36,496 nucleotides of DNA from IMG/VR virus record IMGVR_UViG_2518645528_000001. One strand, written 5' to 3'. Under the pieces are notes generated by a model. It was not told the DNA's origin and did no database searches. It saw nothing but the letters and a program-made list of their open reading frames with translations. The translations under genes and the position numbers were made by a program. Positions within the stretch are counted from its first letter, which is position 1, and each line of letters opens with the position of its first letter. Positions 5,688 through 23,038 of this stretch are shown piece after piece. This DNA is from a virus.

Positions 5688-6110
5688 TCAATTATCAACG
5701 AACACAACGATCCGCGCTTCCAGCCCGGTAACGATCTTGTTCTGCAGCAGCGTGCTTGTGATCCTGCTGCTGTAGCACTGCGCATCTGCTGCCTTTCCGT
5801 TCAGCGAAGGATCAGCACGGATAAGCGCCTTAAGCGCATAGTCCTTCTTGTTTAAGTTGACCTCATGACCTGTATAATCGAGGTAATACACCTCAACCTG
5901 ATAAGTGAGCGTGTCTTCTGTCAGCGCCTCATCAAGCTCTGATTCTTTTGTTTCTCTCTCGATCTTTGCGATAAACATGCACGGAAAAACAGCATTCTCA
6001 AGCGTCATGGTGTTGAGATATACATTTCCCGAAGCGTCCGCAAATTCCGCATCCGCTATGATCTTTGCTTTTATAGCATCCGTTATATCATTATACTTTG
6101 TGTTTGTCAT
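5688..6110 (-). CDS. Tail terminator / completion protein (140 aa)
   Basis: Size, position and FPCMFI...YQVEVYY pattern typical of lambda gpU / SPP1 gp17-like proteins. Confidence 0.65.
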   Translation of the reverse strand: MTNTKYNDITDAIKAKIIADAEFADASGNVYLNTMTLENAVFPCMFIAKIERETKESELDEALTEDTLTYQVEVYYLDYTGHEVNLNKKDYALKALIRADPSLNGKAADAQCYSSRITSTLLQNKIVTGLEARIVVFVDN

Positions 6111-15125: not shown

Positions 15126-16361
15126 TTATTCACCAAAATCCTTTGCGGAGAATGCCGGGAACTCTTCGTTATCCAGCTCGACCGCTGTTCTTTCTGCCGA
15201 CACGGGAGTTGTTATCCTGGTATGGATCACTGGCTGTTTTGAGAGCTCGGCTATCTGCCTCTGAAGTTCTCTTACACGGCCGTCGTGCTCCATCTCGGCT
15301 ACCCGCCTGATCAGGTCTTTGTTCGAGGCCTCAAGCTCTGCTATCTTGGCCTTTGCAGCTTCAAGTTCTGCGGCTGCCTGGTTCGTTTTCTGTTTCTTGA
15401 CTTCCTCAAGCTGCGCCTCTAGTGCAGCAACGTCGGAACCCTTGTTCTTTACCGCCTCGGAAAGTTTTCTTTCCAAGACATCTATAGCGGGGTCTGTACT
15501 TGATCCCCCGGCTCCTTCTTTCTTATCCAGCATGTTTTCACCTTTGGATGAATGTGATACCGCTCCTGCGTTCTCTTTTTCTTTTTCTTTTTCTGCTTTC
15601 ATACCCATGTTCTTCATCATGTCCTGCATGTCCTCATCGATCATGTCAGGATTAGATTTCATGAATCCAAGCATATCTTTCATCTGTTCTTTTGTATATT
15701 CTGCCGTAGTATCAACTCCTTCGTTGAATTTGCATATAGTGCAGGCGCCCTTTCTGACTGTAGCAGCGCCCATAAAAATAAGATCGGTTGCAAGCATCCG
15801 CTTGTTTTCCTTTTCCTTATCCTGCTGCGGATTGATGAACATCTCACTTGAGATATCCGTGATCTTGCCGCGCTTGAGCAGCGTTGATATGTCCTTTCCG
15901 TTCTGCGTCGGGAATATGCGCACATCGCCAAGCCATCTAGCCGGATCTTTCTGGAATCGTGGATTTTCTACGATACCGATTTCATTCGTGAGCGGTAGGC
16001 GGTCGTATATGTCGTGATCCATCTTCACTGTCATGCGCTCGAACTTCATTTTCTCAAGCTCTGATGCAGGGTAGTGAGTGGCTTTCCTGCTGTGCGCATC
16101 AGTCCATGTGCCTTCAGCGATCAGCGTAACGTCATGGAAAATCGTATCGCCTGTTTTCGGATCTTCTGTGAACTTCACGGACTGCTTGAATGCAAGCGCC
16201 ACGGGCTGCTTATTCGGACATGCGCTGTTCTGCTTGCTATTGCCTTCAGCGTCGGCCTGCATCTTCCCACATACTTTCTTAGCGACTTCCTCAGAGTACC
16301 CCTGCTCTTTCATCATGTGCGTTACGCACGCTTCAAAGTCCTGAAATTGTCCTATAGGCAC
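15126..16361 (-). CDS. Prohead protease / scaffold fusion (411 aa)
   Basis: N-terminal protease-like beta domain (VKMDHD, ISSE...FMGAATVRKG), Met-rich linker, long C-terminal coiled coil. Confidence 0.75.
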   Translation of the reverse strand: MPIGQFQDFEACVTHMMKEQGYSEEVAKKVCGKMQADAEGNSKQNSACPNKQPVALAFKQSVKFTEDPKTGDTIFHDVTLIAEGTWTDAHSRKATHYPASELEKMKFERMTVKMDHDIYDRLPLTNEIGIVENPRFQKDPARWLGDVRIFPTQNGKDISTLLKRGKITDISSEMFINPQQDKEKENKRMLATDLIFMGAATVRKGACTICKFNEGVDTTAEYTKEQMKDMLGFMKSNPDMIDEDMQDMMKNMGMKAEKEKEKENAGAVSHSSKGENMLDKKEGAGGSSTDPAIDVLERKLSEAVKNKGSDVAALEAQLEEVKKQKTNQAAAELEAAKAKIAELEASNKDLIRRVAEMEHDGRVRELQRQIAELSKQPVIHTRITTPVSAERTAVELDNEEFPAFSAKDFGE

Positions 16362-17444: not shown

Positions 17445-18191
17445 CTATTCTTTTGAAATTATTGGTAACAGTACACAGCGGCACTGTGGATGTACCGGCG
17501 GCACTACGTGATCACTATCCAATCTAAAGACTTTGCCATCAAGAGGCCCGCACACTGGACAGACCCTTTCATCCTGTGCCGTGATAAATTCTGTTTCCTC
17601 GATGTCGTGTTGTTGGTAGCGGATAATCGTTCCCTGCGTAAATGCGTTGATCGTTTCAGTCCTGGCCATTACTGTTGCTCTCTGAATGCCGATATGATCA
17701 ACTCGATCCGTGATCCTGCCTGCCAGCTCAGGAATTCCCTCACCTCTCTGGATGCCTGTCGTGAGCTGCTCGATGATCTGCTTTGACTGCTCGTCTGAGA
17801 TCCCTTTCAGAGCTGAAAGGTTGCGCACACGCAGTGCGTCAATCGCCCGCCAGTCTGCAGGAGTATTCGCGCCAACCGATACTTCGATACCTGCGCGTGT
17901 GAGGCCGAAGCCTGCATAAGTCGTGCCTGACTGGTATGACTTCCGCACGTAATCGTCAGTGATCCGCTTTCCTGGAAGGATGATTATCTCTGTTGCCAGA
18001 TCTCTGAGCCGATCAGCCAGCCAGGGTGTGTTCACGTCTGCTGCCGCCAGCGTCCTACCTTCTGACTGCTTGAGAGCCTCTACAGCTTGTTTTTTGTAGC
18101 TGCGGAATAATCTGCGCAGAGCTACAGCGTAGCTATTTTGTATCGTTCTTGTGTGGGTAGGCTCTTTTCTGGTGTCAGTGCTGAGGCGCAT
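17445..18191 (-). CDS. Minor head protein (SPP1 gp7 / Mu gpF family; start moved to ATG 18191)
   Basis: RATVMARTETINAF...DERVCPVCGPLDGK...PPVHPQCRCVLLP. Confidence 0.9.
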   Translation of the reverse strand: MRLSTDTRKEPTHTRTIQNSYAVALRRLFRSYKKQAVEALKQSEGRTLAAADVNTPWLADRLRDLATEIIILPGKRITDDYVRKSYQSGTTYAGFGLTRAGIEVSVGANTPADWRAIDALRVRNLSALKGISDEQSKQIIEQLTTGIQRGEGIPELAGRITDRVDHIGIQRATVMARTETINAFTQGTIIRYQQHDIEETEFITAQDERVCPVCGPLDGKVFRLDSDHVVPPVHPQCRCVLLPIISKE

Positions 18192-19392
18192 CTGTAATAT
18201 CCCCTGGCATCTGTTCCGGGAACAGATCTTCCTCTTCGTCATCCTCATACTGCCCCGGATCAATGTTCAGTTGCTCCTGCACCCAGCGCCTCGGAAGCAC
18301 GGAAAAAGGATCGATTGGAGTTGAGCGCATGATATTCGCTATCCATTCTGCTTTGAGTTTTTCATCTTCAGGCGTGATATCGTTGAACACAAGACGCACG
18401 GCGCCGGGTTCCTGCGTGTACAGATTGATCACGTTTGAGTATATGCGTTCAAGTCGCTTCTGGTATCTTGCGATTTTCTGGAGATATGATTCTATGCGCT
18501 TGGCTGCTGTTGCGTCAGTTGATCCGCGCCTCAAGCCGAGAAGCTCCTCCGGGACACCCAGAGCAGCGCACGCCCTCATAATGCTGATGTCGTTGTATGT
18601 ATCGATTCCAGTGAGCCCGCCTTCATCTATGTTCTTGATCTCCACGTCCCGGACTGTGACGAAATCGTTCTTGCTTTCGAGATCCTGGAACTGCTTGTCT
18701 ATATTCTGCAGCACGTCCTGCGGTATGATCTCGCCTTCTTTGCCGACACGGATGTGGTACTTCTTGAAGCCGTGCCTTTCTACTGCAGTAGCAGATGCCT
18801 CTGCGGTCTTGGTGTCGCGCATGATATCATCGTATGCCCTGCCGATGAGAGAAAGGCCGTACATGCTGCCACCCAAGGATTTTAGCTGGATGTGTGTGGC
18901 CTGCTCCGGCTTGAGCTCTATGCCCTGATCGAGCATATCTATCTGCTGCATGTAGCCGTTGATCTTGCCATGATCGTCGTGCAGGATCGAGAAGCTCCAT
19001 GATTCCCTTGCCACGATCCTCTCAAGATCGCCGCCGCGCGTGAATACGTTCTCCTGGAAGCCGTCGCCGTACACAAGCGCATCTATGAGGCCCTGCTCCA
19101 TGACGTAATCGAAATCGAAGCCCTCTAACCATTGCCATACATCGTCTGCAAGATTTTCGTCCTCGCCTTCGAGCCGCCAGCCGTTAGCGAATGCAAATAG
19201 GGCGTAAGTGTCTATCGCTTCTGCGAATACGCCGCCCTGTTCATATATCGTGCGGTATTTCTTCAGGTTCTCCTGATTCCGCATTCTCTCTGAGAAATAG
19301 TTGCGCCTGTTGCTGCCGCCTGACGCTATGTATGTCTTTGGCTGCGCTTCATTCTTGAAGGCTTGAAGTGCCTGCTTTAACCGGTTTAACAC
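18175..19392 (-). CDS. Portal protein (405 aa)
   Basis: Position before gp7-like gene; DALVYGDGFQE, SMYGLSLI, CAALGVPEELLG patterns. Confidence 0.85.
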   Translation of the reverse strand: MLNRLKQALQAFKNEAQPKTYIASGGSNRRNYFSERMRNQENLKKYRTIYEQGGVFAEAIDTYALFAFANGWRLEGEDENLADDVWQWLEGFDFDYVMEQGLIDALVYGDGFQENVFTRGGDLERIVARESWSFSILHDDHGKINGYMQQIDMLDQGIELKPEQATHIQLKSLGGSMYGLSLIGRAYDDIMRDTKTAEASATAVERHGFKKYHIRVGKEGEIIPQDVLQNIDKQFQDLESKNDFVTVRDVEIKNIDEGGLTGIDTYNDISIMRACAALGVPEELLGLRRGSTDATAAKRIESYLQKIARYQKRLERIYSNVINLYTQEPGAVRLVFNDITPEDEKLKAEWIANIMRSTPIDPFSVLPRRWVQEQLNIDPGQYEDDEEEDLFPEQMPGDITDAPQH

Positions 19393-19414: not shown

Positions 19415-19436
19415 TAAATAAAGCTGAAAAAAAAGG
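19415..19436 (-). promoter_or_regulatory. Late-promoter motif copy (portal); T-tract doubles as array terminator
   Basis: CCTTTTTTTTCAGCTTTATTTA, 23 nt before ATG 19392. Confidence 0.7.
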
Positions 19437-19458
19437 AATTGAGTCCAATACATCTCTT

Positions 19459-19641
19459 GTTACATCCCTACTTCTGATAAATGTCACTCTTCAACCAGGC
19501 ACGGGCGGGTATCATTTCTCATGCAAAGAACTGTTACATCCCTACTTCTGATAAATGTCACTCTTCAACACCTGTCAATTATATCCATCAAGCAGGGTAT
19601 GAAAGTTACATCCCTACTTCTGATAAATGTCACTCTTCAAC
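19459..19641 (-). CRISPR. Mini-array: 3 identical 37-bp repeats, 2 internal spacers (37 and 35 nt) plus a terminal 24-nt spacer-like segment (19435-19458)
   Basis: Repeat GTTGAAGAGTGACATTTATCAGAAGTAGGGATGTAAC (minus) at 19459-19495, 19533-19569, 19605-19641; 3' end resembles Cas12f/Cas14 repeats. Confidence 0.93.
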
Positions 19642-19723
19642 ACTACCAGCCCGATATCGGTTTTTTAGCCGAAATTCAGGCGTGCTGGCAATTTATTGAA
19701 ATACTTATAAAGACAAGAAAACA
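19642..19723 (-). promoter_or_regulatory. Array promoter and structured leader
   Basis: TTTATAAG box just after the cas stop; CCAGC...GCTGG stem enclosing TCGG...CCGA and CCGATATCGG. Confidence 0.5.
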
Positions 19724-21295
19724 CTATTGCATAGACACAATATTATTTGCCTGATTTATAAGTTGATTAACTTCATATCCGCAGGACTCACATTTAAAGT
19801 TTTTGATACCTTTGATAAGCTGCGTAATCGCCTTCGCGGGTTTTTTCCCGTTCTTTTGCTTCGCACCACATGACGAGCATACAAGATCATTGCATTTGTT
19901 ATATTTGATCTCTACAATCGGTATGCTTACCTGCATCGCTTTGTGCCTTAGGTAGTCCTGCTGCTGAACGACTGGCCACAGGTTCTTCAGGTAATTCAAC
20001 TGCTTACCGAAGTTCTGTGTTATGCCATTGCCAACATCCCATAGCAGTATCTTGGGATTCTCTGACTGTTCCATGATATAATCTACCACCTTCCTTGATA
20101 TCTGGTGATTATACGTGGATACATACCTCTGTTCTACGTTACCTCTTCTCCGTATCTTCTTCCTTCTGCGCCTGATCTTTCTCATTTTTTCATCAGGTGA
20201 CTTTCTTACCGTAATCTCTGCCCGCTTCTCTTTGAAGTGCCTCTTAGAGAACGCAAGCTGACCTGTTGACATCCACTTAACCGAATTAAGCGCACCATCC
20301 TCATCGTATCCAAACACTCCTATCCTGGTTGGCGATGACAGGACAACGAACGGATCACACTCTTCAATAGCAGGGGGCTGCTTGACCTTGATCTCCAGTG
20401 GATACATTAGATAGTAGTCGCCATTCTTTTTTGTGATGTTGCAATATACGTTATTGTCTGCTTCCATCTTCAGGATATACTGCTTAAGATACTCTTTGCC
20501 CCAGAAGTCTATCCTCTTCCTGCCTTTCCCCCATAATGTGAGATAAAGCTCTCCGTTATCCCACTGTACAAACCCGGAAGCCATCATTATGGTTCTGCAC
20601 TCTTCAAGATGCGGAAATGATATTGGTCGTTTCAGCCGCCTCACATCCATGAGTTTATCATGCAGCCTTCTGATCTCTTTCTGTTCTTTGTCTGAGAAAT
20701 CACGGAATACCTCTTTTGTAGCATGTGCCTTTGCGGTTTTCCATATCATCTTTGGGTTACTGCGCTTTGTATCTGCTGCCTTCTGCTCTATCAGCATTGC
20801 AGCGTGCAGGTATCGCTGATCTGGATATGATGATAGCTCTGCTTCAACCACCCCTAACTCTCTGTTGCGCTTGATCCTCCAGGCATTGTATGATTTCCAC
20901 ATTGCGTATGCTTGAGAGAACAGCATCGCGTAATGCGTCTTAACCGGGATTTCTATGACGCTTTTTAAGTCGTTTGCCACTACACGGTCACCTACACCAT
21001 ATATTTCTTTTCGCACAGTGTATTCACTGTACGTTTTCATAGCGCAGGATGAGCAGTATTTTCGATTGGTGTATCGATTAAGAAAGGTTAGATTCTTTTC
21101 TGTATTGCATTCAGGACATACGCCGTCGATACGGTTTTCTTTCGGGATCTCTTCAAACCGTGAAACAAATACTTGATATCGTTTCTCGATTTCGTTCAGT
21201 GACCAGTTAATGCCAGTTCTGAATGCCTCAAAAAGGGTTTTTAGTTCCTGCTCTTGTGGTATTATCAAATTAAGCTTTATGCCTACTGTTTTCAT
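19724..21295 (-). CDS. Cas12f/Cas14 (TnpB-derived) effector, predicted nuclease-dead (523 aa; start moved to ATG 21295)
   Basis: MKTVGIKLNL start, CPEC...CSSC zinc finger, WPVVQQQDYLRHKA helix, CSSCG...FKCESCGY zinc ribbon, terminal N..N.A.NI motif; RuvC acidic residues replaced; adjacent array. Confidence 0.85.
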   Translation of the reverse strand: MKTVGIKLNLIIPQEQELKTLFEAFRTGINWSLNEIEKRYQVFVSRFEEIPKENRIDGVCPECNTEKNLTFLNRYTNRKYCSSCAMKTYSEYTVRKEIYGVGDRVVANDLKSVIEIPVKTHYAMLFSQAYAMWKSYNAWRIKRNRELGVVEAELSSYPDQRYLHAAMLIEQKAADTKRSNPKMIWKTAKAHATKEVFRDFSDKEQKEIRRLHDKLMDVRRLKRPISFPHLEECRTIMMASGFVQWDNGELYLTLWGKGRKRIDFWGKEYLKQYILKMEADNNVYCNITKKNGDYYLMYPLEIKVKQPPAIEECDPFVVLSSPTRIGVFGYDEDGALNSVKWMSTGQLAFSKRHFKEKRAEITVRKSPDEKMRKIRRRRKKIRRRGNVEQRYVSTYNHQISRKVVDYIMEQSENPKILLWDVGNGITQNFGKQLNYLKNLWPVVQQQDYLRHKAMQVSIPIVEIKYNKCNDLVCSSCGAKQKNGKKPAKAITQLIKGIKNFKCESCGYEVNQLINQANNIVSMQ

Positions 21296-21314
21296 CACAT
21301 TTTCCAAAATATCA

Positions 21315-21430
21315 CCTGTATTGAAGTAGGGTTGGCTCTCCGCCAAAATGACGGGAGCCACCTTGCGCGCTGTAACGGGCACGCATTGCACAGCGCATAT
21401 AGCACTATACAATCGCATCTTAGATATGCT
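21315..21430 (-). ncRNA. Putative tracrRNA in the 5' leader of the cas12f-like gene
   Basis: CCCTACTTC (21331-21323) complementary to repeat GAAGTAGGG; GTTACA (21376-21371) complementary to repeat 3' end TGTAAC; several stems; TATA at 21453-21460. Confidence 0.7.
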
Positions 21431-21474
21431 ATCGTTCCTATACATCTCTATAATATATAACACTTTCGATCATA

Positions 21475-21667: not shown

Positions 21668-23038
21668 CTACCAGCTCCTTTTTGATACCACTATGCTGCT
21701 GAATCGGTTCACGTCGCCGCTGCCTTCGGATGCGGTCACAGCGAAATCAAATGCGTCAAATGTGTCGTCATGCGATGCGTCCGGGAATAAGCAGAGCTCG
21801 TCCACAAATACGGCCATGTCTTTGCGCAGGAATACTTTCTTATTCTCGAATAGTGCGCTGCGCCTCTGCGCTCTTGTCACTTTGTCTTTGACCGTCTGCA
21901 GTTCCTTGATCGGAAGCGTGGTTGTCCTGATCAGTTCCTGCGCAAGAGCTCGCTGGTACTGGTTGATCTCTATTCCGATGCTGACAGGCTGCCACTGCTG
22001 CGCCTTGAGTCTGATGATCTCCTGCTGCGCCTTGAAGCTGAGCCGGTCGCGGTACAGATCCAGGACGTAGATACTGCCGTTAGGATCGATTCCTAGTGTC
22101 ATGAGCGCGAAGTAATCGGCGGTCTCTTTTTCGCTTATTGCGAGATCCACGCCCTGGTATATTTTCAGCTTCTGCGGTGCCCTGTCATGATCATAGAACT
22201 GCATCCACTCAAAGCGGAATATGTGCCCCTGCTTTGCCAGCTCGACATCGTTCTGGTATTGCATTGAGAATATAAGGCTGCCGAGCTCTGCCTTTATCTG
22301 CAGCAGATCCGTGGAAGAAAACTTTGCAGGCCACAGACTGGAGCCGTCGTCCTGGATGGCGCGCTGGATCTGGACGCTGTACTGCTTGCTGTCCATGAGA
22401 TCCTGGTACAGATCCAGCGGATGATAGCGCGTACCTATGACTACAAGCTGGCCGTGCGGTTCCAGGGTTGGAAGTAATGCAGTACGATACCACTCGCTGA
22501 GCTTCCTGCGCTGCAGCTCTGTCCTGGCGTTCTCGAAATCAACGATGTCGTCGGCTATGATAATATCAAAATGCTTGCTGATCACCGCGCCTGACGCACC
22601 TAATGCAGTGAGTGTGCTTTCTTTTGCCACTATGGTCCTGCCTGAAACGGAGAGCTCGCTTTCAGTCCACTTATCGCTTTTGAAAGTCCCGAAGAGCTCA
22701 AGCAGCCGTGAGTTTCCTTCCAGGTGTGCTTTCATTTCTCTCAAAAATGATTCTGCCTGGCTCTGCGTGTTGCTCACAACAAGGATCCTTGTGTTGCGGT
22801 TCTGTACTATCTTCCAGAGGCAATAGCCGATATCTCCTATCGTGGATTTGCCGAAGCCGCGCGGCGCAAGATCGAGCGATTTCTTACTGCAGGTGATATG
22901 CTCAAGGATCTTCCTGTGGTGCTGTTCTACCTGATAGCCCAGAACATTTCCCAGGAAATAATCTTGATCGAGCATGCAGAGCGCTTTAGTAGATAGCAGC
23001 CTGTTTGAGCTTTGATATGATCCTGGCTCTTCCGACAT
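21668..23038 (-). CDS. terL: Terminase large subunit (start uncertain, possibly 22975)
   Basis: Walker A APRGFGKST, Walker B IIIADD, nuclease GVDLA...DY and HDDTFDA. Confidence 0.93.
   Translation of the reverse strand: MSEEPGSYQSSNRLLSTKALCMLDQDYFLGNVLGYQVEQHHRKILEHITCSKKSLDLAPRGFGKSTIGDIGYCLWKIVQNRNTRILVVSNTQSQAESFLREMKAHLEGNSRLLELFGTFKSDKWTESELSVSGRTIVAKESTLTALGASGAVISKHFDIIIADDIVDFENARTELQRRKLSEWYRTALLPTLEPHGQLVVIGTRYHPLDLYQDLMDSKQYSVQIQRAIQDDGSSLWPAKFSSTDLLQIKAELGSLIFSMQYQNDVELAKQGHIFRFEWMQFYDHDRAPQKLKIYQGVDLAISEKETADYFALMTLGIDPNGSIYVLDLYRDRLSFKAQQEIIRLKAQQWQPVSIGIEINQYQRALAQELIRTTTLPIKELQTVKDKVTRAQRRSALFENKKVFLRKDMAVFVDELCLFPDASHDDTFDAFDFAVTASEGSGDVNRFSSIVVSKRSW

Follow-up and report, generated by a model that had tools for sequence, protein, structure and literature searches.

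A probable non-cutting Cas12f2-like CRISPR module in an archaeal provirus, with a spacer matching a co-resident element

Introduction

Interference without cleavage of DNA is established among type V CRISPR systems for Cas12m and Cas12c (PMC12669027, PMC11656645), and a census of TnpB and Cas12 proteins mentions inactivated branches inside Cas12f (PMC10691335). Known examples of natural non-cutting type V proteins come from bacterial plasmids (Cas12m) or are bacterial regulators (TldR, and nuclease-dead Cas12f, dCas12f, with sigma-E). Here we analyze IMG/VR virus record IMGVR_UViG_2518645528_000001, a stretch of 36,496 nt (the window) that represents an integrated tailed virus of an archaeon. 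Between its terL and portal genes the window encodes a Cas12f2-like effector in which the RuvC catalytic residues are replaced, with a structured RNA directly upstream and a short repeat array downstream, one spacer of which is identical to a site in a second element of the same genome. The module is probably a self-contained, V-F2-derived CRISPR cassette that silences a rival mobile element by binding without cutting.

The closest described systems are those of Cas12f2 (type V-F2) from uncultured archaea. The effector of the window is homologous to Cas12f2 over its full length, is of the same size, and has the N-terminal zinc finger and C-terminal zinc ribbon. Also alike are the 37-nt repeats, which begin with GTT and have CAAC-type or TAAC-type ends, the predicted dependence on a trans-activating CRISPR RNA (tracrRNA), and a T-rich 5' protospacer-adjacent motif (PAM), of which the module provides a single case. 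Unlike Cas12f2, the effector has all of its RuvC residues replaced, scores 125 bits where the curated cut-off is 450, and carries a zinc-ribbon insert that is found in a dead clade. In addition, the tracrRNA-like RNA is directly upstream of the gene and continuous with it, and the loci are carried by viruses or other mobile elements. Genes for Cas1, Cas2 and Cas4 are common at type V-F2 loci, whereas no Cas1 match occurs on the contig of the window (no separate search of the window was made for Cas2 or Cas4); an earlier reading made from the letters of the DNA (the sequence-only reading) had likewise reported that adaptation genes are absent.

Cas12m resembles the module in being carried on mobile elements (PMC11656645, PMC12669027). 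Cas12m and Cas12c likely share with it the principle that a guide directs binding and a rival element has essential genes silenced as a result. The module differs from Cas12m in that it derives from another Cas12 lineage and is archaeal and virus-borne. Cas12m and Cas12c are not known to need a tracrRNA, and they retain a RuvC site for RNA processing. We infer a non-cleaving type V system that would be Cas12m-like in principle, yet V-F2-derived, tracrRNA-dependent and borne by an archaeal virus.

Bacterial dCas12f proteins are either linked to sigma-E or linked to arrays that target efflux promoters; they have C-terminal truncations and originate on the Cas12f1 side of the family (PMC13472631). 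Like the effector of the module, dCas12f of both kinds and TldR are naturally dead relatives of Cas12f or TnpB; they are RNA-guided binders of DNA (PMC13472631, PMC10705468), as the effector is predicted to be. In contrast to these proteins, the effector of the window has a complete C-terminus and no sigma-E or helix-turn-helix partner, is archaeal, and has viral structural genes as neighbors. It also differs from TnpB (OMEGA) systems, in which the 3' end of the gene encodes the guide RNA inside transposon ends and TnpA is associated, as its guides would come from a repeat-spacer array, its scaffold RNA is upstream of the gene, and no transposase is adjacent, a point already made in the sequence-only reading.

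Very short arrays with a spacer against another mobile element are also known from archaeal viruses (PMC7099407, PMC10541130). Those mini-arrays use the Cas machinery and the repeat of the host, whereas the module brings its own effector and tracrRNA-like RNA into a host that lacks a matching repeat. Extrachromosomal elements of Methanoperedens are reported to encode a TnpB-like protein beside an array, with conserved cleavage residues and an array that is large and rapidly diversifying (bioRxiv 10.1101/2023.08.02.551345). Compared by description only, that system is similar to the module in its probable host group, in being borne by mobile elements and in having spacers against other elements. 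In our literature library, which is incomplete, we found no paper on the effector family, its upstream tracrRNA or its targets.

Array and spacer targets

The array is on the minus strand, as are all features of the module, and begins 83 nt downstream of the effector stop codon (19724-19726). A repeat search identified three identical 37-nt repeats at 19605..19641 (leader-proximal), 19533..19569 and 19459..19495 (the last), separated by spacer 1 (35 nt, 19570..19604) and spacer 2 (37 nt, 19496..19532). The mini-array of perfect 37-bp repeats described in the sequence-only reading is thus present.

Spacer 2 matches G000:C1:493596-493632 at 37 of 37 bases. Apart from the spacer itself, the 3.2-Mb genome in which the provirus resides contains no other significant match, and the protospacer is preceded by TTTA on the guide-like strand. 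Cas12f enzymes recognize T-rich 5' PAMs. The protospacer corresponds to codons 342-354 of a gene for a 951-aa protein that has no match in Pfam, PHROG or NCBIfam. The nearest Atlas clusters of this protein are viral and plasmid primase/helicase proteins with the MTBMA_p00010 P-loop domain, a lead that the target may be primase/helicase-like. The gene is located in an 11.6-kb segment (G000:C1:485101-496754) with 17-bp direct repeats at its ends. Also encoded there are an integrase, a terL split in two frames and a tail-fiber-like protein, and a small gene may, judged by position only and with no terminase-family match, encode a small terminase subunit. The segment may be a provirus, small or defective, or an element that resembles a satellite. 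Its tail-fiber-like protein shares 31% identity over 100 aa with one encoded at the left end of the window.

Searches of the window, of the host genome, of 284 genomes from its order, and of viral and metagenome contigs found no match to spacer 1. Spacer 2 has no match in the viral contigs. A perfect, PAM-flanked target in the genome that carries the spacer would be self-destructive with an active nuclease, and an effector that binds without cutting therefore fits this arrangement.

Effector protein and loss of the catalytic triad

The effector gene (19727..21295) encodes 523 aa. A longer frame of 579 aa from a GTG start was rejected as an artifact, because its extra N-terminus overlaps the conserved non-coding RNA described below. 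Against Pfam, the protein shows only a sub-threshold Cas12f1-like TNB domain. The NCBIfam model for Cas12f2 (NF049972) matches it over the full length (E 3e-36), with 125.2 bits that are below the curated cut-off of 450, and guided_TnpB gives 35 bits against a cut-off of 100. Neither the Pfam nor the NCBIfam scan gave a Cas12m family match. An AlphaFold model built on 24 homologs has a mean pLDDT (predicted local distance difference test) of 87.6, and its top Foldseek match is the active AsCas12f (E 1e-12, probability 1.0). Cas12f complexes rank ahead of Cas12g, TnpB, Cas12k and Cas12m; a solved dCas12f is at rank 17 and Cas12m (8pm4) at rank 49, with an E value of 4e-5.

A word-indexed search retrieved 77 relatives. 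They form one subfamily with 50-72% identity to the query and a second with 34-41%. An exhaustive profile search added a few clusters of the family, followed by a gap and then by full-length proteins at 90-200 bits. Among the relatives outside the family, P0097 and P0098 are true Cas12f2 by the NCBIfam cut-off (574 and 636 bits) and carry the usual D, E and D. Aligned by hhalign, a profile of 47 family sequences (39-66% identical to the query) and one of 11 active Cas12f2-like sequences match over their full length (488 columns, probability 100%, E 7e-48). In the 47 sequences 51 columns are invariant, including eight zinc-binding cysteines: C60, C63, C81 and C84 at the N-terminus and C473, C476, C502 and C505 at the C-terminus. 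The cysteines and the fold comparisons bear out the Cas12f architecture (N-terminal zinc finger, C-terminal zinc ribbon) proposed in the sequence-only reading. Profile and model comparisons support placement of the effector with Cas12f, its closest active kin being Cas12f2 (Cas14b-like) and not Cas12f1. The Cas12f/TnpB fold assigned earlier therefore stands, and the comparison with Cas12f1 made at that time is refined.

In MAFFT and hhalign alignments, L319, W419 and L512 stand where active relatives have the D, E and D of the catalytic triad. They are in exactly the stretches PFVVLSSP, ILLWDV and NQLINQANNI for which acidic residues had been reported missing at the expected sites. Replacement of the RuvC-II glutamate by W419 and of the RuvC-III aspartate by L512 is agreed upon by phmmer and hmmsearch against AsCas12f (which cover RuvC-II and RuvC-III only), MAFFT and hhalign. 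The RuvC-I aspartate aligns to L319 in hhalign and one MAFFT run and to F316 in the other MAFFT run, and is non-acidic either way. Profile alignment and structure prediction against Cas12f and TnpB thus confirm the loss of the triad and recover the Cas12f fold. Across the 47 sequences W419 is invariant and L512 nearly so. Because these residues are fixed and the cysteines and the 51 columns are kept, we interpret the loss as a conserved change of function and not as decay. It holds across the family of about 77 proteins and a wider dead clade. In a maximum-likelihood tree, the effector family, P0082/P0083 and P0085/P0087/P0090, all without the triad, are on one side of a 100/100 branch that active Cas12f2 adjoins; a single ancient inactivation is therefore possible for the dead clade. 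The dead groups, and only these, share a conserved insert in their C-terminal zinc ribbon (MAFFT).

Could the effector still be a nuclease, with a rearranged catalytic site and relocated acidic residues, as in several TnpB branches? The nearly invariant D314, on the first RuvC strand, would be a candidate, and such rearrangements are documented in TnpB and Cas12 (PMC10691335). Two of the three positions are, however, a bulky tryptophan and a leucine conserved across the family. E388 and E508 are conserved too, but active relatives have them as well (MAFFT), so they are not replacement catalytic residues. As a perfect PAM-flanked target also coexists with the spacer in one genome, we consider a retained nuclease very unlikely.

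Upstream RNA

A structured RNA of about 95 nt (21320..21413) precedes the effector gene and is continuous with its 5' untranslated region. Comparison of loci shows that this non-coding element is conserved in each of the two subfamilies; scanned for an exact motif, 13 of 15 loci have it, and the remaining two have diverged copies. From an alignment of 12 sequences, RNAalifold predicts three stems, and 16 of the 21 pairs show compensatory changes. In an eight-base loop, the window, L007, L008, L010 and L015 have GTTACA (21371-21376 in the window), and the repeat of these loci ends in TGTAAC. The loop reads GTTGCA where the repeat ends in TGCAAC (L005) and GTTGTA where it ends in TACAAC (L009). 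Past a conserved AACC, the 3' end (about 21323-21333) is complementary to 6-11 bases of the repeat just upstream of the repeat terminus, and this complementarity covaries locus by locus. Because loop and 3' end both change in step with the locus's own repeat, the RNA has the features that a tracrRNA with two repeat:anti-repeat duplexes should have. The tracr-like leader beside the gene that was noted in the sequence-only reading is in this way substantiated. The anti-repeat ends no more than about 25 nt before the ribosome-binding site and start codon of the effector, so the effector transcript almost certainly has the tracrRNA as its 5' end. A TATA-like box read from the sequence (21449..21460) precedes the first conserved stem by about 35 nt and belongs to the putative promoter of the module.

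The anti-repeat emerged from locus comparison only, and a plain duplex-energy scan for it gave nothing above background. Rfam contains no family for the RNA. An 18-nt motif of the tracrRNA has no match in the viral contigs and 51 in the metagenome contigs, of which 50 are chance matches and one is a true relative. In L012, a repeat-like motif just before the start codon was considered as a natural single-guide RNA and rejected, as its 3' end does not fit the tracrRNA loop of that locus.

The pairing with the repeat bears on the idea that the module is an anti-CRISPR decoy, in which a dead effector and its tracrRNA would soak up CRISPR RNAs from a type V-F system that belongs to the host or to a rival. 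Such an action has been proposed for a phage Cas9 whose RuvC domain is dead (PMC11656645), and the module is virus-borne and without adaptation genes. The tracrRNA covaries, however, with the module's own repeat in every locus, and the module has its own spacers, one with a perfect target. The host, for its part, has no type V effector and no array of a related repeat. It encodes type I and type III systems with Cas1 genes (matches on contig C1 only) and large arrays, all with repeats unrelated to that of the module; no other array with the module's repeat and no second copy of the effector family were found in the host genome. An array at C1:414479-415453 with a superficially similar repeat was evaluated as type V-F and rejected, as its neighbors are type III (RAMP proteins, a CARF protein and Cas2). 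A decoy function is, we judge, improbable.

Conservation of the RNA also bears on whether the module is a remnant, in decay and now functionless, of an active Cas12f2 system. Such a remnant would account for the missing catalytic residues, the tiny array and the lack of adaptation genes. Against this, the reading frame is intact and the repeats are perfect, the invariant columns and all zinc ligands are kept in proteins as little as 39% identical to the query, compensatory changes preserve the tracrRNA, and the dead clade is old and diversified. We give this explanation hardly any credence.

Proposed mechanism

We propose that transcription from a first promoter would produce the structured tracrRNA running into the effector mRNA. 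A second promoter would drive the three-repeat array. It is predicted in the leader (19642..19723), which has a TATA-like box and a conserved motif adjoining the first repeat; the leader is conserved in L009 and partly in L005. At each repeat, the internal loop of the tracrRNA would pair with the final six bases, and the 3' end of the tracrRNA with the bases immediately before them. The guide complex would join the Cas12f2-like protein, in which the zinc sites and the RNA- and DNA-binding architecture are kept and the RuvC positions are hydrophobic. The complex may then locate targets with a T-rich PAM and remain bound without cutting. Spacer 2 would steer it to the primase/helicase-like gene of the 11.6-kb element elsewhere in the chromosome. 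The likeliest role, and a potential benefit to the virus, would be to restrain a competing or parasitic element by blocking its transcription or replication while the shared chromosome is left unbroken.

Several points weigh against this interpretation. A target is known for one of the two spacers, and the PAM and target class rest on this single case. The nearly invariant D314 sits five residues upstream of the RuvC-I position. Homologs of the effector occur in varied contexts and not only at a terL-portal junction. The assembly consists of 10 contigs and has 3.65% contamination; provirus (C5) and target (C1) are on separate contigs and could derive from different strains. Furthermore, the protospacer is inside a gene rather than at a promoter. 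As it is the coding strand with which the guide pairs, RNA polymerase would meet the PAM-distal end first. With dCas9 and dCas12a, this orientation results in weaker roadblocks. Because the target is intragenic and polymerase reaches the PAM-distal end first, a simple block of elongation is not the sole option, and a block of replication or another effect of binding is as open as a block of transcription. The sequence-only reading had suggested programmable transcription silencing by the virus. Silencing, which we propose with moderate confidence, gains support from the perfect, PAM-flanked target in a co-resident mobile element.

If the proposal is correct, the module would add an independent example of non-cutting type V interference that is V-F2-derived, tracrRNA-dependent and from an archaeal virus, with a concrete co-resident target. 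It would explain how a provirus can attack a neighbor in a shared chromosome without the host being killed. In practical terms, a predicted binder of 523 aa that is naturally dead and dual-RNA-guided, whose scaffold RNA is defined and whose PAM is likely TTTA, may be useful for compact repression, including in methanogens and methane-oxidizing archaea.

Distribution and possible regulatory roles

The effector family occurs in 2 of 284 genomes of the host's order, as expected for cargo of mobile elements. No useful relatives were found in the viral contigs. Genome contigs provided four loci with relatives, three of them on short contigs in bins labeled as bacteria or DPANN archaea; these three are probably mis-binned mobile DNA. 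The sequence-only reading had pointed to terL-portal junctions as the place to look for homologs. The module of the window is at such a junction, and the settings of the other homologs vary.

Homologous loci carry 3 to 13 repeats, and no conserved partner gene was found around the array-bearing subfamily. L009 has the 13-repeat array, with 12 varied spacers. It also has four solitary short repeat remnants (L009:3026-3160 and 5806-5840), each followed by a guide-like stretch, and one of the remnants is just upstream of the promoter of the module. In one subclade, downstream arrays of 10-14 units are present (L010:7650-8200, L015:7600-8170, L016:4030-5320). Only about 13 nt of repeat, with GGATGTAAC at the end, are conserved in these units, and it is this portion that pairs with the tracrRNA. 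Spacing of the units is irregular (about 28-117 nt), and some guides are common to L010 and L016. A 17/20 match between an L010 guide and a tail-fiber-like gene was discarded as being at chance level. L008 (3831-4018 and 6306-6342) has a single repeat downstream of the gene; upstream of the gene is a degenerate array of three repeats that is oppositely oriented.

The second subfamily (34-41% identical; L012, L017, L018 and L019-L022) retains the upstream tracrRNA-like RNA, and no array or cognate repeat was found within 4-6 kb of its genes. The effector gene, at about 6001 in L012, L017 and L018, is always divergent from a small AbrB/MazE-like gene and at the head of a long run of small genes, an arrangement that resembles a switch region.

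Past the last repeat of the window are 24 nt followed by eight T, likely an archaeal terminator (together 19427..19458, read from the sequence). The 24 nt (19435-19458) could be a third guide. They match the module promoter region (21435..21454), where ATTA is followed by 16 nt, at 13 of 16 positions. The chance probability of this match is about 0.01, a rough estimate made before counting the PAM. The match suggests, as a lead only, a self-target for autoregulation; it is not conserved in the homologous loci.

These observations raise the possibility that the module regulates viral genes or recruits another activity to the bound site, for example in autoregulation, in a lysis-lysogeny switch, or in activation as by dCas12f with sigma-E. 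Consistent with this are the promoter match beside ATTA, the array-less subfamily with its AbrB/MazE-like gene and long operon, the arrays that have shrunk to repeat remnants of about 13 nt with some guides common to different viruses, and the precedent of PMC13472631. However, the promoter match is absent from other loci, the array-bearing subfamily has no conserved partner gene, spacer 2 is clearly aimed at a foreign element, and the 12 varied spacers of L009 resemble immunity and not fixed regulation. We regard it as unlikely that regulation or recruitment, and not conflict with other elements, is the main role of the module.

A broader scenario, which we put forward tentatively and do not favor, is that archaeal viruses carry a whole lineage of Cas12f2 systems that are naturally dead and have the tracrRNA in the 5' end of the effector transcript, a lineage in which graded domestication has led from CRISPR immunity to viral gene regulation. 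The series, equally speculative, might run from full arrays with varied spacers, through mini-arrays against co-resident elements (as in the window) and arrays with repeats of about 13 nt, to array-less copies beside an AbrB/MazE-type gene. The arrays with shrunken repeats and the array-less relatives provide a testable series for the transition from CRISPR effector to regulator. Were domestication to have occurred, these proteins would represent a natural compact silencer compatible with the archaeal transcription machinery.

Provirus and host genome

The window corresponds to C5:243028-279523 of the 10-contig genome. Structural genes encode terL, portal, a MuF-like head protein, the major capsid protein and a tail protein. 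Also encoded are an MCM helicase, a tyrosine integrase and a Gp3-like recombination directionality factor. The archaeal provirus recognized in the sequence-only reading is accordingly documented by its integrase, MCM, terL, portal and major capsid protein genes. The module is flanked by terL (21668-23038) and portal (18175-19392), both on the minus strand, as is the module. Its own TATA-like box, its oligo-T end and its position among late genes suggest a moron, an additional gene unit equipped with a promoter and a terminator of its own, and expression from the prophage would thus be possible.

The host genome contains mcrA, has 43% G+C, and includes 29 reading frames with at least five CxxCH heme motifs. 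Thus, we infer a Methanoperedens-like host, a methane-cycling archaeon. In the type III-associated array of the host (G000:C1:414479-415453), one spacer matches the provirus at 15712-15741 over 24 consecutive bases, or at about 30 of 34 bases if an indel of 4-5 nt is allowed. The site is within a gene for a 411-aa protein (15126-16361). This looks like the memory of a related virus, with a match that is no longer perfect.

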